From: Deltaproteobacteria bacterium
GTDB lineage: Bacteria > SAR324 > NAC60-12
Length of the DNA: 11,029 nucleotides
Reading direction: 5' to 3'
Assembly: GCA_038150265.1 (NCBI GenBank)
Contig: JAYOTF010000011.1
Coordinates: 1-11,029, forward strand
Below, piece by piece: positions 2,438-10,875 of this stretch (position 1 is the first letter of the stretch; the number at the start of each line of letters is the position of its first letter). Made by a program: the position numbers and the translations under genes. Under the pieces are notes generated by a model. It did not search any database and was not told where the DNA came from. It saw nothing but the letters and a program-made list of their open reading frames with translations.

Positions 2438-3856
2438 ATGGAGTCTCAGGTTTTTGATGAAATGGCTGGTCTTGAGGAACAGACCCGCCCGGTTTATGAG
2501 CGCCTCAAGCAGTGGCTTGACGAGATGCCCCACGACCTGCTCACCCTCCGGCGAGACGAAGCCGAGACCCTCTTTCGGCGCATCGGCATCACCTTTGCCG
2601 TCTATGGCGAAGGCGGCGACCCCGAGCGGCTGATTCCGTTTGACGTCATCCCACGCCTGCTCGAAGCCCGGGAGTGGGAATACCTGGCCGCCGGGTTGGA
2701 ACAGCGGGTCCGGGCCCTCAACGCCTTCCTGCACGACCTCTACCACGACCAGGAGATCCTCAAAGCCGGGCTGATTCCTCGCGAGCTGCTCCTGCGCAAC
2801 CCCGCCTACCAGCCCGAAATGCAGGGCCTGGAGGTTCCGGGCGCCGTGTACAGCCACATTTCCGGCATTGACATGGTTCGCGTGGGTCCCGACGAATTCT
2901 ATGTGCTGGAAGACAACGTCCGGACCCCTTCCGGCGTGTCATACATGCTGGAGAACCGAGAGGTGACCATGCGGCTGTTTCCGGAGCTGTTCTCCCGCTA
3001 CGCCGTGGAGCCGGTCGATCACTACTGCGAGGACCTCCTCGCCACCCTGAAATCCGTGGCCCCCCGCGAGTGTGAAGGCGAACCCACGGTCGCCGTCCTC
3101 ACCCCCGGCATTCACAACAGCGCCTACTACGAACACAGCTTCCTGGCCGATCAGATGGGGGTCGAGCTGGTGGAAGGCATGGACCTGTTTGTTCAGGATC
3201 GCTTTGTGTACATGCGCACCACCGAGGGGCCGAAGCGCGTGGATGTCATCTACCGCCGCGTCGATGACGCCTTCCTCGACCCGCTGGTGTTCAATCCGAA
3301 CTCCATGCTGGGGGTTCCCGGACTGATGGCCGCCTATCGCTTTGGCACAGTGACCCTGGCCAACGCCGTTGGAACCGGAATTGCCGACGACAAGGCCGTC
3401 TACATCCATGTTCCGGAAATGATCCGCTTCTACTTCGGAGAAGAGCCCCGCCTCAAGAACGTTCCCACGTGGCAGTGCTCCCGAGCGAGCGAATGCCAGT
3501 ACGTTCTCGACCACCTGGAAGACCTGGTGGTCAAGGAAGTCCACGGGTCCGGAGGCTACGGGATGCTGGTTGGGCCCACCTCCACGGCTCAGGAGCGCGC
3601 CGAGTATGCGAAGCGGATCCAAAGCCAACCTGCAGAGTTCATTGCTCAGCCCACCCTGGCCCTGAGCACCTGCCCCACGCTGGTTGCCGAAGGGGTCGCC
3701 CCCCGGCATGTGGACCTCCGCCCCTTTGTCCTCATGGGCGAGTCCCTTCAGGTTGTTCCCGGAGGCCTGACCCGAGTTGCCCTTCAGGAGGGCTCATTGG
3801 TGGTCAACAGCAGCCAGGGCGGGGGCACCAAGGATACCTGGGTCCTCAAGGCCTGA
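2438..3856 (+). CDS. Circularly permuted type 2 ATP-grasp protein (putative peptide ligase)
   Basis: 472 aa with AAGGAG RBS. Motifs GITFAVY, ERLIPFD, VLEDNVRTPSGVSYMLENR, NSAYYEH, DVIYRRVDD, ANAVGTGIADDK, GSGGYGMLVGP, RHVDLRPF, GGLTRVAL, VVNSSQGGGTKDTWV. Confidence 0.95.
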   Translation: MESQVFDEMAGLEEQTRPVYERLKQWLDEMPHDLLTLRRDEAETLFRRIGITFAVYGEGGDPERLIPFDVIPRLLEAREWEYLAAGLEQRVRALNAFLHDLYHDQEILKAGLIPRELLLRNPAYQPEMQGLEVPGAVYSHISGIDMVRVGPDEFYVLEDNVRTPSGVSYMLENREVTMRLFPELFSRYAVEPVDHYCEDLLATLKSVAPRECEGEPTVAVLTPGIHNSAYYEHSFLADQMGVELVEGMDLFVQDRFVYMRTTEGPKRVDVIYRRVDDAFLDPLVFNPNSMLGVPGLMAAYRFGTVTLANAVGTGIADDKAVYIHVPEMIRFYFGEEPRLKNVPTWQCSRASECQYVLDHLEDLVVKEVHGSGGYGMLVGPTSTAQERAEYAKRIQSQPAEFIAQPTLALSTCPTLVAEGVAPRHVDLRPFVLMGESLQVVPGGLTRVALQEGSLVVNSSQGGGTKDTWVLKA

Positions 3857-3885
3857 CGTCATCATTTCTGTACACACGAGGGAGC

Positions 3886-4836
3886 ATGCTGAGCCGTACC
3901 GCTGACAGCCTTTACTGGATGGCCCGCTACATGGAGCGCGCCGGAAACCTTGCCCGCATTCTGGAAGTCTCGGACCGCATGGCCATGTCTCCGAGTCCCA
4001 ATACCGACGGATTGCCCCCGGGCAACGAGTGGCAGTCAGCCCTGATCACGTCTGGCACCGAGAGCCTCTTCCTGCAGAAGTACGAGGCTCCCTCGGCAGA
4101 GCGGGTTCTGCACTTCCTGGCCCTTGATGAAGCCAACCCCTCCAGCATCCGGAACTGCCTGGAAACCGCCCGCAGGAACGGACGGGCCATGCGTACCGCC
4201 CTCACCCGCGAGGTCTGGGAAAACCTCAATGACACCTGGCTCGAAATCCGGGGCTTCACGACGCAGCGCCTGGTGGGAGTGGAACTGCGGAAATTCCTGG
4301 ACTGGGTCCGGGAGCGCTCGCTTCAGTTTCACGGGGCCGTCACCGGGACGATGCTCCGAGATGACGCCTACGCCTTCACCCGCCTGGGCGCGCAGATTGA
4401 ACGAGCAGACAACACCGCCCGCATCCTTGACGTCAAGTACCACATCCTCCTTCCGGACTACGCCCCCGTTGGAGGCGGGCGTGACTTCTATCAGTGGGCA
4501 GCGATCCTCCGGGCGGTCTCGGCCCACCGCAGCTACCGCTTCATCTACCGGCAGTCCTACAAGCCCTGGCTGATTGCCGACCTGCTGATGCTCCGAGAGG
4601 AAATGCCCCGCTCGCTGGTGGCCTGCCTGGGACACACCTGCACCCACCTGCAGTCCCTCAGCTCACGCTACGGGCAGCAGCACGAGTGCTACCGGCTGGC
4701 CGGGCAGCTTCATGCGAGCCTCCGTTTTGCCCGGATTGACGAGGTCTTTCAAAACGGCCTCCACGAGTTCCTCACCGACTTCATCAGCCGCAACATGAGC
4801 CTCAACGACCAAATCCGTACCGACTTCCTGATGTGA
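3886..4836 (+). CDS. Alpha-E domain-containing protein (DUF403 type, 316 aa)
   Basis: Start moved to ATG 3886 (MLSRTADSLYWMARYMERA), preceded by GAGGGAG. It has two ER motifs (YMERA, IERADNTARILDVKY), plus NPSSI, EVWE and PRSL, and sits in the usual position after the CP-ATP-grasp gene. Confidence 0.93.
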   Translation: MLSRTADSLYWMARYMERAGNLARILEVSDRMAMSPSPNTDGLPPGNEWQSALITSGTESLFLQKYEAPSAERVLHFLALDEANPSSIRNCLETARRNGRAMRTALTREVWENLNDTWLEIRGFTTQRLVGVELRKFLDWVRERSLQFHGAVTGTMLRDDAYAFTRLGAQIERADNTARILDVKYHILLPDYAPVGGGRDFYQWAAILRAVSAHRSYRFIYRQSYKPWLIADLLMLREEMPRSLVACLGHTCTHLQSLSSRYGQQHECYRLAGQLHASLRFARIDEVFQNGLHEFLTDFISRNMSLNDQIRTDFLM

Positions 4837-4840
4837 CGCG

Positions 4841-5656
4841 ATGCACCTCCGAATCGATCACACCACCACGTACCACTACTCCCACCCGGTGGCCTACAGC
4901 GCCCAGCAGATTCGGTTGCTTCCCGACTCGTTTGAGGGGCAGGAGGTCCTGTCGTGGCGCCTGGAAACCGACAGCCGGCACTTCCCGGAGTTTCGCGATG
5001 GCTTCGGCAACCGGACCGCCTTCCTCACACTCGACCGCCCTCATGCCGGGCTGACGCTCCGGGTGATCGGCGAGGTGGAAACCGAAAACTTCCACGGCCT
5101 GGTCCGAGGACTTCCAGAGCCCCTTCCCCCCGAGTTCTTCCTCCGGCCCACCCTGCGGACCCGCCCCTCCCTTGCCCTGCAGCGACTGGCGCAGCAGATT
5201 CCCCAGCAAGGCGGCTCCGTGGAACGCCTGCACCGCCTGATGAATCAGGTCCGGCTGCAGGTGCTCTATGAAACCGGAGAAACCCATGTTGCCACCACCG
5301 CTGATGAAGCACTGGCGCATGGACGAGGAGTGTGTCAGGATCATGCCCACGTTTTTATTGCCTGTGCGCGTCTGTTGGGCTTTCCCGCCCGCTACGTCAG
5401 TGGCTACCTCTGGACCCGTTGCGATGTGCACCATGACGCCAGTCACGCCTGGGCAGAAGCCTGGGTGCCTGACCTCGGCTGGGTGGGATTTGACCCAGCG
5501 AATGGCGTCAGCCCCACCGAAGCCTACGTGCGTCTGGCCTGTGGCCTGGACTACGCAGAGGCGGCCCCGGTTCGTGGGGTCCGTCGAGGCGGAGGCTCCG
5601 AAGCTCTGGAAGTGCACCTCCAGGTTCAGCAGGCCCAGCATCAGGTTGCGGCATGA
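4841..5656 (+). CDS. Transglutaminase-like protein with bacterial transglutaminase N-terminal domain
   Basis: 271 aa. N-terminal HTTTYHYSHPV...IRLLP and DGFGN. Catalytic triad motifs GVCQDHAH, HAWAE and GFDPAN are present, plus ARYVSGY and GLDYAEAAPVRG. Confidence 0.93.
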   Translation: MHLRIDHTTTYHYSHPVAYSAQQIRLLPDSFEGQEVLSWRLETDSRHFPEFRDGFGNRTAFLTLDRPHAGLTLRVIGEVETENFHGLVRGLPEPLPPEFFLRPTLRTRPSLALQRLAQQIPQQGGSVERLHRLMNQVRLQVLYETGETHVATTADEALAHGRGVCQDHAHVFIACARLLGFPARYVSGYLWTRCDVHHDASHAWAEAWVPDLGWVGFDPANGVSPTEAYVRLACGLDYAEAAPVRGVRRGGGSEALEVHLQVQQAQHQVAA

Positions 5657-5674
5657 ACCTTACTCGACTCACCT

Positions 5675-6451
5675 ATGACCTACTGTCTCGGACTCTTCCT
5701 TGAGGAAGGGCTCGTCCTCCTGAGCGACACCCGGACCAATGCCGGGGTCGACCACGTTTCGTCCTACCGAAAAATGCATCTGTTCCATGAGCCCGGGGAA
5801 CGGATGATTGCGCTCATGTCTTCCGGAAACCTCGCGGTCACCCAGGCCGTCGTGAACCTGCTCACCGAGGGCCTGCACTCGGTCGGGTTGCCTGCGGACC
5901 AGATTCCGGAACCGCCGGAGACCCTGATGACGGTTCCCAGCATGTTCCGCGCAGCCCAGCTGGTCGGCGAGGCCGTCCGGGAGGTGTACCGGGTGGATGG
6001 CGAAACCCTGGAGGCCCAGGGCGCCGGCTTCAGCGCCTCCTTTCTGCTGGGAGGACAGGTCCGGGGCCGTCCGATGCGGCTCTTTCAGGTGTACTCGGCG
6101 GGCAACTTCATTGAGGCCTCTGCCGACACGCCCTTCCTGCAAATCGGTGAACACAAGTACGGAAAGCCCATTCTGGACCGGGCCGTCCACTACCACACGT
6201 CCCTGCAGGATGGGGTCAAGCTTTCCCTCATCTCCATGGACTCCACCCTCCGGAGCAACCTCTCTGTGGGCCTGCCGGCCGACCTGCTGGTGTACCGACG
6301 GGACGAGCACACCATCGCCTGGCAGCACCGCATTGAAGAAGACGACCCCTACTTCCGGAACCTGAGGCAAATCTGGTCTGATGCCCTGCACAAGGCCTAT
6401 CAGGGGGTCCCGGAGCCCGACTGGTTCTCCCTTGGACCCCCTTCTTCCTAA
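5675..6451 (+). CDS. Anbu proteasome-type Ntn protease (20S beta-subunit homologue)
   Basis: 258 aa. Begins M-T-Y-C, leaving an N-terminal Thr after Met removal. Motifs SDTRTNAGVD, SSGNLAVTQ, YSAGNFIEA, QIGEHKYGKPILDR and SMDSTLRSNLSVGLP. Fourth gene of the known Anbu operon. Confidence 0.94.
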   Translation: MTYCLGLFLEEGLVLLSDTRTNAGVDHVSSYRKMHLFHEPGERMIALMSSGNLAVTQAVVNLLTEGLHSVGLPADQIPEPPETLMTVPSMFRAAQLVGEAVREVYRVDGETLEAQGAGFSASFLLGGQVRGRPMRLFQVYSAGNFIEASADTPFLQIGEHKYGKPILDRAVHYHTSLQDGVKLSLISMDSTLRSNLSVGLPADLLVYRRDEHTIAWQHRIEEDDPYFRNLRQIWSDALHKAYQGVPEPDWFSLGPPSS

Positions 6452-6469
6452 CCCGACCCAGGAGGTTTC

Positions 6470-7441
6470 ATGCACGTTCTCATCACCGGCGCTGCCGGCA
6501 TGCTCGGACGCAAGCTGACCGAGAGTTTCCTTCAGGACCCCACCCTCGGGGGCCGCCCCATCTCTCGTCTGACGCTGGTGGACCTGGTTCCGCCGGAAGT
6601 GGCTGATTCCTTCTCTGGGCTCCTCACCACTGAAGGGGTGGACCTCGGAGCCCCCGAGACCGCAGAGGTCCTTGCTTCTCAGCGTCCGGACCTCATCTTT
6701 CACCTCGCAGCAGTGGTTTCGGCAGAAGCCGAGACGGACTTTGAAAAGGGCTACCGCGTCAACCTCGAGAGCACTCGTGCCCTGCTCGAAGCCATCCGTC
6801 AGCAACCGAACTACTGCCCGCGTTTCGTCTTTGCCTCCTCCATTGCCGTCTTTGGCACCCCCTTCCCCACGCCCATCCCGGAAACCCACCACCGCACCCC
6901 CCTCACCAGCTATGGCACCCAAAAGGCCATTTCGGAGCTGCTCCTTGCCGACTACTCGCGGCGCGGCTTCCTCGAAGGCATCGGCCTCCGCCTTCCCACC
7001 CTCTGCATCCGTCCCGGTGCTCCCAACAAAGCGGCCTCCAGCTTCTTCTCCGGCATCCTCCGAGAGCCCCTCAATGGACAAGAAGCCGTCCTCCCGGTGG
7101 CCGAAACGGTACGGCACTGGCATGCAAGCCCCCGAGCGGCTGTGGGCTTCTTGCGACACGCCGCCACGCTGGACCTCAGCCAGCTGGGTGCCGACTGCAA
7201 CCTGACCATGCCGGGACTCGCCGCCACCGTCCAGGAGCAGCTCGACGCGCTGGAACGGGTCGCTGGGCCAGAAGCCCTCACGCACATCAAACGTGCGCCT
7301 GACCCAGCCATTGCCCGCATTGTCGAAAGCTGGCCCCAGGCTCTGGAAGCGGAACGCGCCCAGGCCCTCGGGTTTGTCGCCGAGTCCTCTTTTGAGGAGA
7401 TCATCCGGATCTATCTGGAAGAAGAGTCCTCTTCTGCCTGA
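6470..7441 (+). CDS. denD: NAD-dependent epimerase/dehydratase-family extended SDR, D-erythronate dehydrogenase-like
   Basis: 323 aa with AGGAGG RBS. Rossmann TGAAGMLG, HLAAVVSAEAETDF, SSIAVFG, catalytic YGTQK, and PNKAASSFFSGILREPL as in DenD-type proteins. The substrate is inferred from family resemblance only. Confidence 0.8.
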   Translation: MHVLITGAAGMLGRKLTESFLQDPTLGGRPISRLTLVDLVPPEVADSFSGLLTTEGVDLGAPETAEVLASQRPDLIFHLAAVVSAEAETDFEKGYRVNLESTRALLEAIRQQPNYCPRFVFASSIAVFGTPFPTPIPETHHRTPLTSYGTQKAISELLLADYSRRGFLEGIGLRLPTLCIRPGAPNKAASSFFSGILREPLNGQEAVLPVAETVRHWHASPRAAVGFLRHAATLDLSQLGADCNLTMPGLAATVQEQLDALERVAGPEALTHIKRAPDPAIARIVESWPQALEAERAQALGFVAESSFEEIIRIYLEEESSSA

Positions 7442-7473
7442 TGTCCGTAAAAAAGAATTTTCTTGTGTAAACT

Positions 7474-7595
7474 GACACTTTAACTCATCCAAACGCCTTT
7501 TTCTTGGGCAGGTCAGGCCCTCACCCGGTTTTTTTGACCGTTGTCTTTTCCGGGATTGGCCCTTGATTTGACCAAATAGATGAGTTAAGTATGTC
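7474..7595. ncRNA. Nested inverted-repeat element, candidate structured non-coding RNA (core 7474-7595, weakly extendable to about 7445-7619; minus strand slightly favoured)
   Basis: Nested pairs: GACA 7474-7477/TGTC 7592-7595; TTAACTCATC 7480-7489/GATGAGTTAA 7579-7588; GGTCA 7511-7515/TGACC 7569-7573; GGCC 7516-7519/7558-7561; CCCGG 7524-7528/CCGGG 7550-7554; GAC 7536-7538/GTC 7543-7545; side hairpin GCC 7495-7497/GGC 7507-7509. No known RNA family recognised. Confidence 0.5.
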
Positions 7596-7620
7596 CGTTG
7601 TTCACATTTTTTCTTCCGGT

Positions 7621-7642
7621 AGCTTGATTTTTTATGCAAGCT
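7621..7642. promoter_or_regulatory. Operator-like palindrome AGCTTG-N10-CAAGCT
   Basis: Perfect 6-bp arms around an AT-rich 10-bp spacer, 22 bp upstream of the -35 box of the recombinase-like gene. Confidence 0.4.
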
Positions 7643-7664
7643 CACGGATGATTCGACTCACTTT

Positions 7665-7693
7665 TTGAAACGTTTGCAGAAACTCTTTAAATT
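7665..7693 (+). promoter_or_regulatory. Sigma-70 promoter for the recombinase-family gene
   Basis: TTGAAA (7665-7670) - 17 nt - TAAATT (7688-7693), each 5/6 or 4/6 to consensus, 39 nt before ATG 7733. Confidence 0.6.
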
Positions 7694-7732: not shown

Positions 7733-8428
7733 ATGAACGCTTACGGCTACGTACGACTCAACACTCAGCACCAACGTCCGATTGACCTGGACCTGGAGCA
7801 ACAGCAGAACCTGATTCTTCATTATGCTGAGGAAAAAGGACTGAACGTGACGGCAGTGCTGACGGAGGAAGCGCCGACCAGCACCCAAGAGCTCCCGGGA
7901 ATCAAGGAGTTGCTTGAGTTGGCCTCAAAGGGGGAGCTGTCTGCACTGATCATCGCCCGACTGGATCGCCTGACCCGGAACATCCGGTTTTATGCCGATC
8001 TTCTGGACGTTTTCCGCAAACATAACGTCCGTTTGATTTCCATCAAGGAGGGGATTGATTCTGAGGACAAAGCGGGGCAGTTGGCGCTGGAAGCCCTGGT
8101 TCATGCCGCTCGGTGGGATGCCAAACGCATCTCGGACCGGACCAAGGAATTCATTGAGCGCAAGCGGTCTTATGGCGAGCGGGTCGGACACGCTCCTTAC
8201 GGGTTTCATTATGTCCGACGGAAGCTGCAACCCCTGAAGAAGGAAATTGCCACGGCGCTCTGGATTCGGGAAAAACGCCGGGAAGATTCCATGAGCTACC
8301 ACAGCATTGCCAAGCAGCTCAACACCCGGAAGACGCCGTCGAAGCGGGGAGGAAAGTGGTATGCCGAGACCGTGAAAGCGGTGTGCGAAAATCCGATCTA
8401 CGAGCCGTTTGAGGGCACGGCTCTGTAA
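7733..8428 (+). CDS. Serine recombinase family protein (resolvase domain plus recombinase DNA-binding domain), probably catalytically inactive
   Basis: 231 aa. Resolvase fold motifs YGYVRLNT, ARLDRLTRN, VRLISIKEGID and ISDRTKE. Recombinase-domain motifs APYGF and SYHSIAKQLN...KRGGKW...TVKAVCENPIY. No zinc ribbon or coiled coil. Residue 10 is Asn, not Ser. Confidence 0.85.
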   Translation: MNAYGYVRLNTQHQRPIDLDLEQQQNLILHYAEEKGLNVTAVLTEEAPTSTQELPGIKELLELASKGELSALIIARLDRLTRNIRFYADLLDVFRKHNVRLISIKEGIDSEDKAGQLALEALVHAARWDAKRISDRTKEFIERKRSYGERVGHAPYGFHYVRRKLQPLKKEIATALWIREKRREDSMSYHSIAKQLNTRKTPSKRGGKWYAETVKAVCENPIYEPFEGTAL

Positions 8429-9543
8429 GGGAGCGAGGCCTCTACATCCTGAAAGCCGGCTTCAATGCCCTGCCTTTCTTCCTGCAGAAAGCGCCCGATG
8501 GCGGCCCGGAACTGCGGGTGCTCAATCCAGTGGGCGCTGTACGTCAGTTCCGGTAAAAACCCGCGCTGAATCTTGTGGGGGCCCTGCGCTCCTGCTTCAA
8601 ACAAGCGGATGCCCTGCTCAATGGCATACTCGATCGCCTGATAGTAGCACACCTCAAAGTGCAGGCTCCGGAAGTCCTCCAGGCACCCCCAGTACCGCCC
8701 ATACAGGCAATCCCCCTTACGGTAGTTGATGGCGCCCGCCACCGGTTCCCCGTTGCAGGAGGCCAGCACCAGGAGCAGGTGCTCCCTCATGGTGGAAAAG
8801 ACCGTCTCAAAAAACCGGGGCGTCAGGTAAGGCGCCGCCCACTTGCGGTCAATGGTGCTCAGGTAGAATTCATAAAAAATGGAACTCAGCTCGGGCTGAA
8901 TGGCGTCTCCGGTGAGCCGCTCAATCACCACCTCCTGCTCCTGCACCTGCCGGCGTTCCCGGCGAATCTCCTTGCCCCGCTTCTGCTTCAGCGCCTTCAG
9001 GAAGGCGTCAAAGTCGGCATACCCCCGGTTCTTCCAATGAAACTGATAGCTGTGCCGGATCATCAATCCGGCCGCTTCGTATTCAGGAATTTCCTCAGGG
9101 GGAATGAAGAGGAAGTGCAGTGAGCTCGCCTGGCGCTGGGTCTGCTGCCGCATCGTCTCCAGCAGCAGGGGCACCACCTCCGTCCGATCAGCATCCGGGT
9201 GACAGAGGAGCTTCGGACCCGTCGCGGGAGTGAAGGGAATCGCGGAGGTCAGCTTGGGGTAGTAGCGCAGGCCGTTGCGCTGGTACGCATCGGCCCAGCC
9301 CCAGTCAAAGATGTACTCGCCGTTGCTGTTCGTCTTGAGGTAGAGCGGACAGGCGCCCACGAGTCGGGCCTCGTCCCATACCAGCACATGCCGAGGCTCC
9401 CAGCCGGCCTCCCACCCCACACTTCCGGACGTCTCCAGGGCACTCAGGAAGCGGTGCTCCAGAAAGGGAAACGACTCCCCGATCAAGGCGTTCCACGCAT
9501 CGGGAGAAACGTCCGCCAGTGCTGGGGCAATGGTGACCTGCAT
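8398..9543 (-). CDS. GNAT-family acyltransferase, FemAB-like (DUF482 type)
   Basis: ATG at 9543 preferred to the TTG at 9549. Motifs PFLEHRFLSALE, PLYLKTNSNGEYIFDWGWADAY, YYPKL..AIPFTPATGP, QFHWKNRGY, LYGRYWG, LHFEVCYYQAIE and FEAGAQGPHK..RGF. Confidence 0.92.
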   Translation of the reverse strand: MQVTIAPALADVSPDAWNALIGESFPFLEHRFLSALETSGSVGWEAGWEPRHVLVWDEARLVGACPLYLKTNSNGEYIFDWGWADAYQRNGLRYYPKLTSAIPFTPATGPKLLCHPDADRTEVVPLLLETMRQQTQRQASSLHFLFIPPEEIPEYEAAGLMIRHSYQFHWKNRGYADFDAFLKALKQKRGKEIRRERRQVQEQEVVIERLTGDAIQPELSSIFYEFYLSTIDRKWAAPYLTPRFFETVFSTMREHLLLVLASCNGEPVAGAINYRKGDCLYGRYWGCLEDFRSLHFEVCYYQAIEYAIEQGIRLFEAGAQGPHKIQRGFLPELTYSAHWIEHPQFRAAIGRFLQEERQGIEAGFQDVEASLPYRAVPSNGS

Positions 9544-9549
9544 GATCAA

Positions 9550-9787: not shown

Positions 9788-10468
9788 TCAGGCCCCGGCC
9801 AGAGCCGCCAGCAACGCATCACGGTCCCAAACCGTCAGGGCAGGAGGCTGACGCTGCGTGAGGGGATTGCGTGTGCAGGAAGGCGCATGAGCCGCATCCA
9901 GAAAGCGATAGGGCAGGTCTTCATCGCGTCCAGACGGAATGCCCAGCCGAGGGGCCTGCACCACCTGCGTGGGAAGCGGTCCCGGATGCAACTCCAGGGC
10001 GCCGGGCTGCAGGCGTTGCTGATCCCACTCCGGCACCCGCAGCCCAAGGGCGCGGCAAAAGAGCGTCTGTCCTGAACAAAGCCGCTCCGGCTTCCGCAAC
10101 CGACCGCGGCAGGGATTGAGCTCCTGCATCCGCTGCAAACGCTTCCGATCCGGAGGGTTTCCCAGAAAGGGGACTCCGGACTTGATCAGCACGGCGTTTC
10201 CCTCTCCCCGACAGCTCAGGTTGAAGGAGTCGCCGCCTCGGGCGTAGTACATGTAAATGGTTCCGGGAGACTGAAAAAGAGCGGCGCGTTTGGGAGTCCA
10301 TCCGAGGGAGGCGTGGCTGCCCTTCTCTTCAAGAAAGTAGGCCTCGGTTTCAATGATCTGCGCGGCCAGCCAGTGCCCATTCACCTGGTGCCAGAGGACC
10401 TGCCCCAGCAGCTCCACGGCCACCACCCGGGCGTCGCGATCAAAGAACGCGTCCCCCCGGAGGGTCAC
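9788..10468 (-). CDS. mpg: DNA-3-methyladenine glycosylase (MPG/AAG family)
   Basis: 226 aa. Motifs FFDRDARVVAVELLG, IIETEAY, GSHAS, PGTIYMY, GNAVLIK, LCSGQ, PRLGI and PYRF. The GTG start overlaps the upstream stop (GTGA). Confidence 0.92.
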   Translation of the reverse strand: MTLRGDAFFDRDARVVAVELLGQVLWHQVNGHWLAAQIIETEAYFLEEKGSHASLGWTPKRAALFQSPGTIYMYYARGGDSFNLSCRGEGNAVLIKSGVPFLGNPPDRKRLQRMQELNPCRGRLRKPERLCSGQTLFCRALGLRVPEWDQQRLQPGALELHPGPLPTQVVQAPRLGIPSGRDEDLPYRFLDAAHAPSCTRNPLTQRQPPALTVWDRDALLAALAGA

Positions 10469-10875
10469 GGAGAGCGCTTGACCGGAGGGAGCTTCACCTG
10501 GCGGCGAGCGGCGACTTCCTGCTGCCGGAGGCGGCTGAGCTGCTCCCTGGAAATCGCAGGCAGGCTGGAAGCGGCCTGACGTCCCTGAGGGTTGGGGCTG
10601 GCCACCCGGATTCCGGAGGGCGCCAGCCGGTTGCGTCCAGACTCTTCTCGGATCACGGCAAACTCGAAGTAGCCGCTGGTGCGGTTCTTCACCGCAATAC
10701 GCGCCTCCTGGGTTTCTACCCAGTTGAAGAACTCATCCCCCCGCAGCTGCCCCCGAAAGGTGCTGCCATCCGGCTGCGTGAAGGTCCGGACGCCCGGAGC
10801 AGCCGGCACGGCCCAGCTCAAGCTGCTTCCCAGCAGCAGGGCGCTGACCAGTACGGTTCCCATCCAATTTTTCAT
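10465..10875 (-). CDS. Secreted 136-aa protein resembling the N-terminal prodomain of M6 (immune inhibitor A-like) metalloproteases
   Basis: Sec signal peptide MKNWMGTVLVSALLLGSSLSWA, followed by VPAAP...FTQPDGSTF...GDEFFNWVET...GYFEFA. I recognise this pattern from the N-terminus of M6-domain proteases. There is no HExxH. ATGA overlap with the upstream stop. Confidence 0.7.
   Translation of the reverse strand: MKNWMGTVLVSALLLGSSLSWAVPAAPGVRTFTQPDGSTFRGQLRGDEFFNWVETQEARIAVKNRTSGYFEFAVIREESGRNRLAPSGIRVASPNPQGRQAASSLPAISREQLSRLRQQEVAARRQVKLPPVKRSP

Follow-up and report, generated by a model that had tools for sequence, protein, structure and literature searches.

The usual view of serine recombinases is that they either serve mobile elements as enzymes or, like Hin, work as active switches of the host. 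The Tn3/gamma-delta resolvase (TnpR) is transposon-borne, keeps the catalytic S10, ends in a C-terminal HTH_7 domain and recombines DNA; its non-catalytic functions include repression, from res, of its own promoter and an architectural role for subunits bound to accessory sites. Small resolvases and invertases of this kind (Tn3, gamma-delta, Hin, Gin) have about 180–200 aa, with the HTH_7-type domain directly behind helix E. In active serine recombinases, helix E and the residues D67, R68 and R71 serve synapsis as well as catalysis. The large serine integrases Bxb1, SPbeta, TP901-1 and phiC31 are active, phage-borne proteins of 450–650 aa with a full recombinase domain, a zinc ribbon and a coiled coil; the large class as a whole, with CcrA/B and XisF, spans about 450–700 aa. 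A further group comprises short "recombinase family proteins" (about 220–250 aa) that bear the catalytic serine and combine a Resolvase domain with half of PF07508; these names are database annotations, and no experimental study of this group was found in the literature. Only catalytically active serine recombinases are treated in the accessible part of a 2022 review on the host recruitment of mobile-element genes (PMC8987985), and neither a host-kept serine recombinase without its serine nor the family reported here was found described in the literature.

The window analyzed here, a stretch of 11,029 nucleotides from a SAR324 genome (positions 1 to 11,029 of contig JAYOTF010000011.1), contains a gene of this short type in which the position of the catalytic serine is occupied by asparagine. 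Its features are as follows.

7733..8428 (stop codon included), plus strand: coding sequence of a 231-aa nucleophile-less short serine-recombinase homologue (ORF list, Pfam PF00239 and PF07508)
7739..8179, plus strand: Resolvase-type catalytic domain and helix E, residues 3–149 (PF00239, genome family search, AF2/Foldseek)
8243..8401, plus strand: first, N-terminal half of the PF07508 (Recombinase) DNA-binding domain, residues 171–223, the best-conserved stretch in the family (Pfam E 2.1e-7)
7760..7762, plus strand: codon 10, AAC (Asn), at the catalytic Ser10 position (alignment to gamma-delta/Tn3 resolvase and TP901-1 integrase)
7892..7894, plus strand: codon 54, CTC (Leu), at the resolvase R45 position (phmmer alignment)
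7964..7978, plus strand: codons 78–82, D-R-L-T-R, the kept D67, R68 and R71 equivalents (alignment, clade counts)
8120..8122, plus strand: codon 130, GCC (Ala), at the resolvase R119 position in helix E (phmmer alignment)

The domain content of the protein was compared with that of the known systems. The Pfam Resolvase model was matched over positions 1–144 of 145 (E 1.1e-24, 87.6 bits against a cut-off of 23.3). The PF07508 match covers model positions 3–54 of 102 only, where the protein ends, so the original prediction of an intact recombinase DNA-binding domain is accurate for the N-terminal half, a half-form that is normal in relatives of about 220–250 aa. Pfam revealed neither a zinc ribbon nor a coiled coil in the 231-aa protein, and HTH_7 gave no match at E ≤ 1, the C-terminal part being PF07508 instead. 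The AF2 model (pLDDT 85.4) predicts an alpha/beta fold of resolvase type that leads into a long helix E, and all top Foldseek matches were serine recombinases (integrases and resolvases), among them TP901-1 3bvp (TM 0.86 on the target, rmsd 2.3) and the Bxb1, SPbeta and phiC31 integrases.

In both sequence and structure, the best matches were the large serine integrases (PDB 9iu2, 9y66/9dxh, 3bvp and 4bqq), and the PHROG integrase family phrog_95 was matched at 2.8e-40. This likeness extends from the catalytic domain through the initial half of the recombinase domain, whereas the query is less than full integrase length and lacks the nucleophile. The NCBIfam models of large recombinases (XisF, CcrA, CcrB and CcrC) scored 24–68 bits against cut-offs of 375–900, the Mpi invertase model of the small resolvase/invertase class 47.5 bits against 272, and the YneB family (NF049883) 29.4 bits against 175. 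TnpR shares the catalytic-domain fold and a helix-E dimer (predicted here) with the query at about 18–19% identity in the structural alignment; however, the query has the PF07508 half-domain instead of HTH_7, and Asn10 instead of S10.

The short Ser-bearing proteins are the closest in architecture. They have the same length and domain composition, can be aligned end to end with the query at 28–36% identity, and share helix E, LDRLTR, the G..P(Y/F)G linker and the KRGG.W...TV motif with the clade to which the query belongs. Unlike the clade, they retain YxRVSTxxQ, S.K..RPG and WERE..SERT. The nearest annotated relatives are "recombinase family proteins" of 225–227 aa with an intact YxRVSTxEQ, located on plasmids of 8–10 kb. 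Examples of the short group are WP_062436756.1 (an 8.3-kb Picosynechococcus plasmid) and WP_129356178.1 (Solidesulfovibrio plasmid pDCAR2). The DNA-binding part of the short Ser-bearing group is variable and its annotated examples lie on small plasmids, whereas the members of the clade are nearly frozen in this part, chromosomal and single-copy, and carry Asn10. A cluster look-up of ten sister-group and clade proteins returned no informative names.

Residue by residue, the phmmer alignment against solved structures places N10 at S10 of the gamma-delta and Tn3 resolvases and at the catalytic Ser of TP901-1 integrase, so the nucleophilic Ser of the Y-x-R-x-S-T motif that defines an active serine recombinase is Asn in this protein. 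The other equivalences, from resolvase to query, are D36 to E45, S39 to P48, E118 to D129, E124 to D135 and R125 to R136; R8 and L77-D78-R79-L80-T81-R82, which includes the D67, R68 and R71 equivalents, are present. The original prediction had read an intact ORF with AAC at residue 10, an Arg missing from the segment usually read as SG...RP, Ala at the R119 position, and retained R8 and D-R-L-x-R, and all of these readings agree with the ORF list and the alignments (Leu54 at the R45 position, A130 at that of R119). The ORF has no frameshifts and no internal stops, and the same start Met is found in full-length homologues at 41–92% identity.

The weight of each change can be judged from mutants of Tn3 resolvase, as reported in the accessible part of PMC2794168. 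Catalysis was nearly abolished on mutating Y6, R8, S10, D36, R68 or R71; the query retains the equivalents of Y6, R8, R68 and R71, with Glu45 at D36 and Asn10 at S10. Cleavage by S10A and R8A was less than 0.0001 of that of the activated parent, and S10A abolished all activities. R45A left 0.0034 of the cleavage rate, and R119A was proficient in vivo (PMC2794168, same part). The original prediction had counted several active-site losses, and the S10, R45 and R119 positions are indeed all changed; however, R119 is not crucial for catalysis by the Tn3 mutant data, so the decisive loss is that of Ser10. By analogy with these mutants, the protein is presumably catalytically dead.

We counted residues in 122 clade proteins and 134 sister-group proteins of identical short architecture. 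Position 10 is Asn in 117 of the 122 clade proteins and Ser in one, whereas it is Ser in 133 of the 134 sister-group proteins. No clade protein has Arg at the R45 position (L 65, Q 39, H 7 and others), compared with 133/134 in the sister group, and likewise none has Arg at the R119 position (A 48, T 37, S 15, N 10, V 4), compared with 127/134. R8 is Arg in 69 clade proteins and in 134/134 of the sister group; it is missing in about 46 of the 115 clade members with a residue there (C 36, S 8, G 2), having been lost in one of the two host families. The D67, R68 and R71 equivalents are kept in 122, 121 and 122 of the 122 clade proteins, respectively, and those of Y6, Q19, D67, R68, R71 and R125 are retained in clade and sister group alike, whereas R45 and Q14 are lost or variable in the clade. 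Position 11 varies within the clade (T 48, N 18, S 17, K 10 and D 9 of 122), so Thr11 cannot generally substitute for the serine, as had been asked in the original prediction.

Asn10 was also present in 32 of 34 distinct genomic coding sequences and in 50 of 53 readable species-level loci. Codon 10 in the 34 coding sequences is AAC in 23, AAT in 9 and AGC in 2, and the use of both AAC and AAT indicates that Asn itself is being maintained. The rare Ser-bearing members are nested within the Asn clade and have lost R8; close homologues that keep Ser10, which would have spoken for a recent mutation, were otherwise not encountered, and the loss is clade-wide. In a quick IQ-TREE tree with a midpoint root, the Asn clade was split from 47 sampled Ser-bearing rows with an SH-aLRT of 100, and it subdivides along family and genus labels.

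The distribution of conserved positions differs between the two groups. In the catalytic domain, mean pairwise identity was 0.44 for clade proteins and 0.42 for sister-group proteins, whereas in the C-terminal part it was 0.62–0.68 in the clade compared with 0.32–0.33 in the sister group (residues 186–220, 0.68 vs 0.33); because the two groups were sampled to different breadth, this contrast is indicative only. Residues 151–160 are nearly frozen (entropy 0.34), and the clade-specific conserved residues cluster in the DNA-binding half-domain and in residues 149–163. These values are indicative of a shift of constraint from the catalytic domain to the DNA-binding part, the reverse of the active relatives.

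In its own genome (97.8% complete), the gene gave a single match, which is also the only PF00239 match there. Strong matches (E 5.6e-42 or lower) were found in 56 of 88 genomes of the phylum and were confined to two families of one order; at E ≤ 1e-5, 40/44 genomes of one family and 16/19 of the other had a match. The gene occupies one place per genome, except for two partial matches on two contigs in one genome (G010), and one of the matches counted at E ≤ 1e-5 (G059; E 1.1e-15, residues 2–101) is a fragment that lies outside the 56 strong ones. The remaining families of the class gave only weak matches to other recombinases. Scanning a single genome for each of 185,579 species yielded 56 family loci, the titles of which are nearly all SAR324, Delta-/Lambdaproteobacteria or generic, such as "uncultured bacterium". 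A profile search did not find the gene in a same-family genome of 4.3 Mb assembled as one contig, in two one-contig genomes of 1.6–1.7 Mb or in a 6-contig genome of 92% completeness, so it is dispensable in some lineages.

Selection on the gene is purifying. In 48 within-genus pairs, dN/dS was 0.049–0.258; the FemAB_like gene next to it gave 0.049–0.363 in these pairs. Against the nearest genome, 100 synonymous and 19 non-synonymous codon differences were counted (dN 0.04–0.05, dS 1.1–2.4). Across genera and families, 22 pairs gave dN/dS of 0.23–0.79, likewise below 1, but with dN of 0.26–0.70 and unreliable dS estimates. The within-genus values of 0.05–0.26 lie below 1, as the original prediction had anticipated, and its preference for exaptation over a fresh pseudogene gains support from these values, from the clade-wide Asn10 and from the scarcity of Ser10-keeping homologues.

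The gene lies among housekeeping genes (epimerase, FemAB_like, MPG glycosylase, glycolate oxidase subunits, GntR, DnaG, Lnt, FolB and LptF/G), and its place is fixed within genera. No mobile-element genes were present among the neighbors scanned at 21 loci. At the same 21 loci, no conserved operon partner hinting at a regulated pathway was found, nor any neighbor common to both host families except a loosely linked Zn-ribbon/unknown gene. The convergent FemAB_like gene (PF04339 at 3.4e-148) recurs at 10 of the 21 loci, and in the window it overlaps the end of the recombinase homologue.

8398..8428, no strand assigned: tail-to-tail overlap of 31 bp with the convergent FemAB_like gene (8398–9549, minus strand) (ORF coordinates)

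A homodimer was supported by the structure model. The predicted homodimer scored 0.57 compared with 0.08 for the best control; among proteins of solved structure, 20 of 30 one-chain pairs and 1 of 23 single chains reached this mark. Since resolvase dimers have already been solved, this pass may come from likeness to them. The dimer runs share at least 66% of contacts with a partner pLDDT of at least 75. The modeled interface consists of helix E and residues 77–89, and R82 is predicted to contact W128 of the opposite subunit.

These data are best explained by the domestication of a plasmid-type short recombinase as a non-cutting, dimeric, site-specific DNA-binding protein that would act as a transcription regulator or an architectural protein, a reading that we consider probable though well short of certain. 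The ancestor of one SAR324 order would have captured a short plasmid-type serine recombinase consisting of the Resolvase domain, helix E and half of the Recombinase domain. The nucleophile would then have been lost (Ser10 to Asn) along with the R45 and R119 equivalents and, in one family, also R8. With these residues gone, a covalent phosphoserine intermediate would be impossible, and neither DNA cutting nor recombination would be expected. The gene would have been kept on the chromosome as a single, vertically inherited copy, with selection strongest on the linker and the DNA-binding part. Because the cutting Ser was lost long ago and the gene is still kept single-copy across the order, the protein most likely only binds DNA now. 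It would form a resolvase-type dimer through helix E, with the D67, R68 and R71 equivalents within the predicted interface, and the dimer would bind one conserved DNA sequence and act there as a regulator or architectural protein, in the way that Tn3/gamma-delta resolvase represses its own promoter from res.

The region upstream of the gene was searched for such a DNA target, and three elements were noted.

7661..7679, plus strand: 19-nt block CTTTTTGAAACGTTTGCAG, candidate promoter/operator element (identical in the nearest related genome)
7665..7693, plus strand: promoter-like site TTGAAA-17-TAAATT (consensus scan, 9/12 matches, 40 nt upstream of the ATG)
7622..7635, plus strand: 14-nt block GCTTGATTTTTTAT (shared without change by the nearest related genome)

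The original prediction had credited the gene with a good sigma-70 promoter. One site was indeed found; however, the 9/12 match is modest, shuffles of the region gave 0.5 ± 0.8 sites, and in the comparison with the nearest genome the -35 (TTGAAA) lies in a conserved block whereas the -10 (TAAATT) is unconserved. The block CTTTTTGAAACGTTTGCAG contains the 8-bp palindrome AAACGTTT and is identical between the two genomes although the synonymous sites of the gene are near saturation. The block GCTTGATTTTTTAT may contain a putative -35 (TTGATT) of an alternative promoter with GATGAT at 7647–7652 (8/12 matches). Both blocks occur once each in the 3.39-Mb genome. A GntR gene precedes the homologue in another genus, and the 19-nt block was considered as a relic of such a gene; tblastn gave only an 8-residue match (E 4–9), and this candidate was rejected.

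A motif shared across the order was sought by counting 7–9-nt k-mers in 250 bp upstream of 18 genus-level representatives, and the best word, TCAGAAAA, was not above dinucleotide-type shuffles; strand folding had doubled the counts to the same extent in real and shuffled sequences. Alignment of 16 upstream regions in the best-sampled genus showed no operator block beyond the ribosome-binding region. In four loci of the second host family, the inverted repeat TCAGAAAA-N7-9-TTTTCTGA lies just after a TTGAC-type -35/-10, and two further loci of this family have different inverted repeats in the same place; for this arrangement, a hairpin at the 5' end of the RNA seems a likelier reading than a protein-bound operator. 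No public RNA runs with the sequence of the gene's genome were found; a run whose kind is not stated contains 0.70 of the words sampled.

The kept synapsis residues raise a different reading, in which dimers bound to at least two places on the chromosome associate via the tetramer interface and hold loops without strand exchange, which would make the protein a nucleoid-organizing or chromosome-architecture factor rather than a classical gene regulator. Helix E and the D67, R68 and R71 equivalents are invariant, a resolvase-like dimer is predicted, and catalytic mutants of Tn3 resolvase still bind and synapse site I according to the accessible part of PMC2794168. The same part of that study implicates R119 together with R125 in synapsis, and the R119 equivalent is lost here; in addition, repeated candidate sites were not found by the k-mer count or the genome search of the two upstream blocks, and the gene is dispensable in several genera. 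We therefore regard a bridging or synapsis-only role as unlikely. In a more far-reaching reading, an order-wide chromosomal clamp without scissors, the Y6/R8/R68/R71 pocket would dock the former scissile phosphate at a specific site, Asn10 would hydrogen-bond and the synapsis interface would pair distant sites. This reading is speculative and rather unlikely; if true, it would represent a new class of chromosome-organizing or long-range regulatory protein derived from plasmid resolvases.

The original prediction had also named a dominant-negative inhibitor, that is, a dead subunit that poisons incoming serine recombinases by mixed dimers or site occupation in a defense-like manner. A plasmid-type ancestor and a genome without an active serine recombinase of its own would fit such a role, since any target would then be foreign. 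However, the absence of another Resolvase-domain gene from the genome and the behavior of a core gene weaken the dominant-negative idea: the gene is single-copy, fixed in place within genera and follows taxonomy, unlike typical defense genes. PADLOC-DB gave 0 families at E ≤ 0.01, and a nearly frozen DNA-binding part is a poor fit to the diverse sites and interfaces of foreign recombinases. We consider this role improbable.

Rated slightly lower still is the reading that the protein is an enzyme whose pocket of Y6, R8, D/E36, R68 and R71 with Asn10 performs another phosphoryl reaction, such as hydrolytic nicking, or uses another nucleophile. This copy keeps four of the six residues on which Tn3 resolvase depends most, with a conservative Glu at D36, so a residual phosphate-directed activity is conceivable from the sequence, and Asn10 itself is under selection, being encoded by AAC as well as AAT. 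On the other side, the family stays conserved while R8 is lost in about 46 of 115 members, position 11 is variable, the R45 and Q14 equivalents are lost or variable, constraint appears to have shifted off the catalytic domain, and Tn3 resolvase S10A has no activity left (PMC2794168, accessible part). That the gene is a recent pseudogene, or that codon 10 was missequenced or misassembled, would need a single transition (AGC read as AAC) and is refuted by Asn in 117/122 homologues down to 41% identity, both Asn codons, an intact ORF in 34/34 distinct genomic copies, dN/dS of 0.05–0.26 and the clade-wide loss of the R45 and R119 equivalents.

If the preferred reading of a domesticated, non-cutting DNA-binding protein is correct, the clade offers a clean, well-sampled example of the route opposite to that of the recruited active enzymes, in which the chemistry is discarded while fold, dimer helix and, most of all, the DNA-binding part are retained for a host function, here across an entire order of bacteria that are abundant in the ocean and in groundwater. 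The family is well defined, with 56 species-level loci and a clear Ser-bearing sister group, which makes it suitable for asking what the recombinase scaffold is used for without catalysis, and it provides a natural "S10N" variant for binding and synapsis studies. The pipeline names "recombinase" and "DNA invertase" are probably wrong as statements of function for the clade, the members of which can be recognized by the diagnostic motifs GExVGHAP[FY]G and WYAET[VI]K.

Serine-recombinase profiles, structural alignment, and comparative genomics were applied to the 231-aa protein that carries Asn at the nucleophile position. Its gene and the surrounding features are as follows.

6470–7441: NAD-dependent epimerase gene, upstream, followed by a 291-bp spacer of 43% GC
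7622–7635, forward strand: block GCTTGATTTTTTAT, perfectly conserved with the nearest genome in an otherwise diverged spacer
7661–7679, forward strand: block CTTTTTGAAACGTTTGCAG, also perfectly conserved with the nearest genome; includes the palindrome AAACGTTT and the scanned promoter's −35
7665–7693, forward strand: promoter-like TTGAAA-17-TAAATT
7733–8428, forward strand: nucleophile-less serine-recombinase homologue, uninterrupted ORF of 231 codons plus stop
8398–9549, reverse strand: FemAB_like gene (PF04339, 3.4e-148), convergent and downstream
Downstream, beyond the FemAB_like gene: methylpurine-DNA glycosylase gene

The protein starts with MNAYGYVRLNTQHQ. Pfam detected the PF00239 Resolvase catalytic domain at residues 3–149 (E 1.1e-24; 87.6 bits, cut-off 23.3) and PF07508 Recombinase at residues 171–223 (E 2.1e-7), the latter only over model positions 3–54 of 102, where the protein ends. 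The recombinase DNA-binding domain, previously described as intact, is thus present as its N-terminal half and not as the full domain. By fold and profile, the protein falls within the serine-recombinase superfamily; judged by its sequence, it fails the superfamily's defining enzymatic feature, the nucleophile. The NCBIfam models XisF, CcrA/B/C, Mpi, IS607 transposase, and YneB all scored below threshold, and neither large serine integrase, Tn3-type resolvase, nor any curated NCBIfam family is its identity.

Residue equivalences come from phmmer alignments of the protein to solved structures of TP901-1 integrase, Tn3 resolvase, and gamma-delta resolvase. The resolvase residues Y6, R8, D67/R68/R71, and R125 are retained as Y6, R8, D78/R79/R82, and R136; D36, E118, and E124 are conservatively substituted by E45, D129, and D135; and S10, S39, R45, and R119 are lost, replaced by N10 (AAC, 7760–7762), P48, L54, and A130. 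Because this alignment gives the same losses and retentions, the original prediction was correct at the residue level. According to a Tn3 resolvase study (PMC2794168), mutation of Y6, R8, S10, D36, R68, or R71 nearly abolishes both recombination and cleavage. Relative to the activated parent, the cleavage rate is <0.0001 for S10A and R8A, 0.0034 for R45A, and 0.033 for R119A, with resolution by R119A persisting in vivo. By analogy with these mutant rates, the decisive loss in the 231-aa protein would be that of the nucleophile. The R119 loss, which had been stressed, is real, but by the same comparison it should affect the chemistry little. DNA binding by such a nucleophile-less protein would still be expected.

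Word-seeded searching of 5.8 billion proteins yielded 523 candidates, 195 of them matching at E <= 0.001. The 120 matches listed were almost all 215–255 aa long and 41–91% identical over their full length, with SAR324 cluster bacterium, Candidatus Lambdaproteobacteria, or "Deltaproteobacteria" as the named hosts, and Asn10 was present in 29 of the 30 rows when 29 of them were aligned with the query. An exhaustive HMMER search of 1.84 billion cluster representatives returned 21,475 matches at E <= 0.001, only 6 of them at E <= 1e-30; beneath these lay a large population of 220–250-aa proteins with 28–36% full-length identity. The motifs Y-x-R-V-S-T-x-x-Q, S-x-K..R-P-G, and W-E-R-E-x-I-S-E-R-T were kept in all 25 sampled members of this population and not in the 6 clade rows. 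The Asn10-bearing SAR324 family (the clade) was then compared with Ser-bearing short recombinases of the same architecture (the sister group), a 200–300 aa filter having left 122 of the 125 ids and 134 of the 144, respectively.

Residues at resolvase positions in the clade (122 proteins) and the sister group (134 proteins)
S10: clade N 117, S 1, D 1, K 1, gap 2; sister group S 133, H 1
R45: clade no R (L 65, Q 39, H 7, and others); sister group R 133
R119: clade no R (A 48, T 37, S 15, N 10, V 4); sister group R 127
R8: clade R 69, C 36, S 8, G 2, gap 7; sister group R 134
Q14: clade Q 45; sister group Q 124

The equivalents of Y6, Q19, D67, R68, R71, and R125 are retained in both groups. Loss of Ser10 is therefore clade-wide (N in 117 of 122 against S in 133 of 134), and on this comparison the residue loss is a family trait and not an accident. 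Thr11 had been raised as a possible replacement nucleophile; it is not one in general, because position 11 varies across the 122 clade proteins (T 48, N 18, S 17, K 10, D 9).

Selection was analyzed on 34 distinct genomic coding sequences, giving 70 pairs with Nei-Gojobori dS < 1.5. The 48 pairs within the best-sampled genus had dN/dS of 0.049–0.258, in agreement with the predicted value below 1, and the adjacent FemAB_like gene had 0.049–0.363 over these 48 pairs. Across genera or families, the remaining 22 pairs gave 0.23–0.79 (dN 0.26–0.70), values below 1 that carry little weight as their dS is untrustworthy. Compared with the nearest genome (92% protein identity), there were 100 synonymous and 19 non-synonymous codon differences, with dN 0.04–0.05 and dS 1.1–2.4 by three methods. 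Codon 10 was AAC in 23 copies, AAT in 9, and AGC in 2; since both AAC and AAT are in use, Asn10 has been maintained through synonymous change. The evolutionary case is strong. A literature search found no description of such a nucleophile-less family, and none appears in the examined passages of a review of mobile-element recruitment (PMC8987985).

The gene is single-copy in the window's genome (3.39 Mb, 87 contigs, 97.8% complete) and is its sole PF00239 match. Across the phylum, 61 of 88 genomes matched at E <= 1e-5, including 40 of 44 and 16 of 19 in two host families of the window's order; the 4 of 24 in other families were all weak (E 2.6e-17 to 3.7e-6) and matched other recombinases. Strong matches (E 5.6e-42 or lower) occurred in 56 genomes at one place each, except for one genome (G010) with two partial matches on two contigs. 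Profile search found the gene absent from a one-contig 4.3-Mb genome of the window's own family, a 6-contig genome, and two one-contig genomes of 1.6–1.7 Mb, so it has been lost several times. A pattern-seeded scan of one genome per species (185,579 species) found 56 family loci with 39–92% identity and four more distant matches with 27–34%. Titles of the family loci were nearly all SAR324, Delta-/Lambdaproteobacteria, or generic, such as "uncultured bacterium"; two short contigs had other labels. Position 10 was N in 50 of these loci, S in 3, and cut off in 3, and the three Ser-bearing loci have R8 replaced by G, A, or S.

A quick IQ-TREE of 91 rows (34 genomic copies, 10 more clade proteins, and 47 sister-group proteins taken as every third id) was midpoint-rooted. 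A branch with SH-aLRT 100 parts the clade's 44 rows (41 N, 2 S, 1 K) from the rows that bear Ser, and within the clade, rows cluster according to the family and genus of the host. Both Ser rows of the clade sit among Asn rows of the second host family; because the tree is a quick one with a midpoint root, we infer the direction of change at these tips by parsimony only.

Among annotated proteins, the nearest relatives come from the N-terminal halves of phage serine integrases (PHROG phrog_95); at full length, the nearest are 225–227-aa "recombinase family proteins" carried by small Picosynechococcus and Solidesulfovibrio plasmids. These plasmid proteins retain the catalytic motifs that the SAR324 clade has lost. 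These full-length plasmid relatives make a plasmid-type short recombinase the most likely ancestor. The GC3 of the gene is 0.68 (neighbours 0.72–0.82), much nearer to that of the host than to that of AT-rich homologues elsewhere, as expected of an old resident.

Residues at least 90% conserved in the clade and not in the sister group gather in the linker and C-terminal part (E149, V151, H153, A154, Y160, K163, Y189, K204, R205, G207, Y210, A211, E212, T213, K215). Mean pairwise identity in the clade and sister group was 0.44 and 0.42 for the catalytic domain, 0.62 and 0.32 for residues 147–225, and 0.68 and 0.33 for residues 186–220; the groups are unequally sampled, but the reversal within each is still clear. 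The DNA-binding part is thus the most variable region in active relatives and the most conserved in the clade, a pattern that fits varied sites for mobile elements versus one fixed target for a host protein.

AlphaFold2 with a 30-row alignment (mean pLDDT 85.4, pTM 0.57) predicted a resolvase-like beta-alpha core, a long helix at 113–131, and a helical C-terminal part. The best Foldseek matches were Bxb1, SPbeta, TP901-1 (TM 0.86 on target, rmsd 2.3), and phiC31 integrases; Tn3, gamma-delta, Sin, and Gin came next. A two-copy complex model scored 0.57 against 0.08 for the best control; among proteins of solved structure, 20 of 30 from one-chain pairs and 1 of 23 from single chains attained that mark. 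Runs agreed in at least 66% of contacts, with partner pLDDT of at least 75. The modelling supports, but does not establish, a homodimer, and the pass may reflect only likeness to solved dimers, because similar dimers are solved. The predicted interface comprises helix E and residues 77–89, with R82 contacting the partner's W128, and offers a possible explanation other than catalysis for why D78, R79, and R82 are invariant. We infer that the protein is most like the non-catalytic face of a resolvase, a helix-E dimer on specific DNA.

The upstream region had been credited with a good sigma-70 promoter; one match was found, but it is only 9/12, and shuffles give 0.5 +/- 0.8 sites. The GCTTGATTTTTTAT and CTTTTTGAAACGTTTGCAG blocks are each unique in the window's genome and may be promoter or operator elements. 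Comparison of upstream regions found no motif common to the order. Four loci of the second host family (L038, L039, L041, L042) have a TTGAC-type -35/-10 followed by the inverted repeat TCAGAAAA-N7-9-TTTTCTGA, ~60–90 nt upstream of the start, and L037 and L040 have different inverted repeats at the same place. Conservation of the structure but not of the sequence points to a possible 5' RNA hairpin in the transcript.

Regions of about 16 kb surrounding the gene were fetched from 20 other genomes, giving 21 loci with the window. The gene overlaps the convergent FemAB_like gene tail to tail by 31 bp (8398–8428); this neighbour is common to 10 of the 21 loci, the ends of the two genes overlapping or lying a few bases apart, and expression of the pair could be linked by convergent transcription. 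At other loci, the adjacent genes encode glycolate-oxidase-type subunits, a GntR/FCD regulator, DnaG primase, a Zn-ribbon protein, Lnt, a ComM-like ATPase, threonine aldolase, FolB, a T2SS ATPase, and LptF/G. Among the neighbours scanned at the 21 loci, there were no transposase, integrase, phage, or plasmid genes and no partner gene common to both host families; PADLOC gave no match for the protein.

A gene cluster (c1) lies within 2–5 kb of the homologue at 11 of the 21 loci, in both host families and on differing sides (downstream at L027–L029, L031, L032, L043, and L044; upstream at L037, L038, L040, and L042). Its products are 300–350 aa without a Pfam match in one family and 510–600 aa with N-terminal zinc ribbons (PF13717/PF13719) and DUF7836 in the other; the linkage may be chance. 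At L006 and L012, a 34-codon remnant of a GntR/FCD N-terminus lies ~40–140 nt upstream of the homologue and ends in the shared ribosome-binding region. The GntR/FCD gene is intact at that place in sister genomes (L028, L029, L043), and the remnant looks like a recent internal deletion.

On the reverse strand, an ORF at 10465–10875 encodes 136 aa; its N-terminus resembles a signal peptide, and Pfam gives no match. Its counterpart in the nearest genome, conserved at 84% identity, comes immediately after the FemAB_like gene, since the window's methylpurine-DNA glycosylase gene was not found at that locus. Four co-directional genes at 2438–6451 (forward strand) encode a circularly permuted ATP-grasp (PF14403/PF04174), an Alpha-E (PF04168), a transglutaminase-like (PF08379 + PF01841), and a proteasome-subunit-like protein, the last with a Proteasome match of 21 bits, just below the cut-off of 22.4. 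The set is conserved in the nearest genome at 90–94% protein identity and presumably resembles the known Anbu-type proteasome-homologue operon. An open frame of 658 codons at 5669–7645 (reverse strand), antisense to the proteasome-like and epimerase genes and without support, has its best explanation in the 61.5% GC content; long shadow ORFs of this kind can lead length-based gene calling astray in the window's genome.
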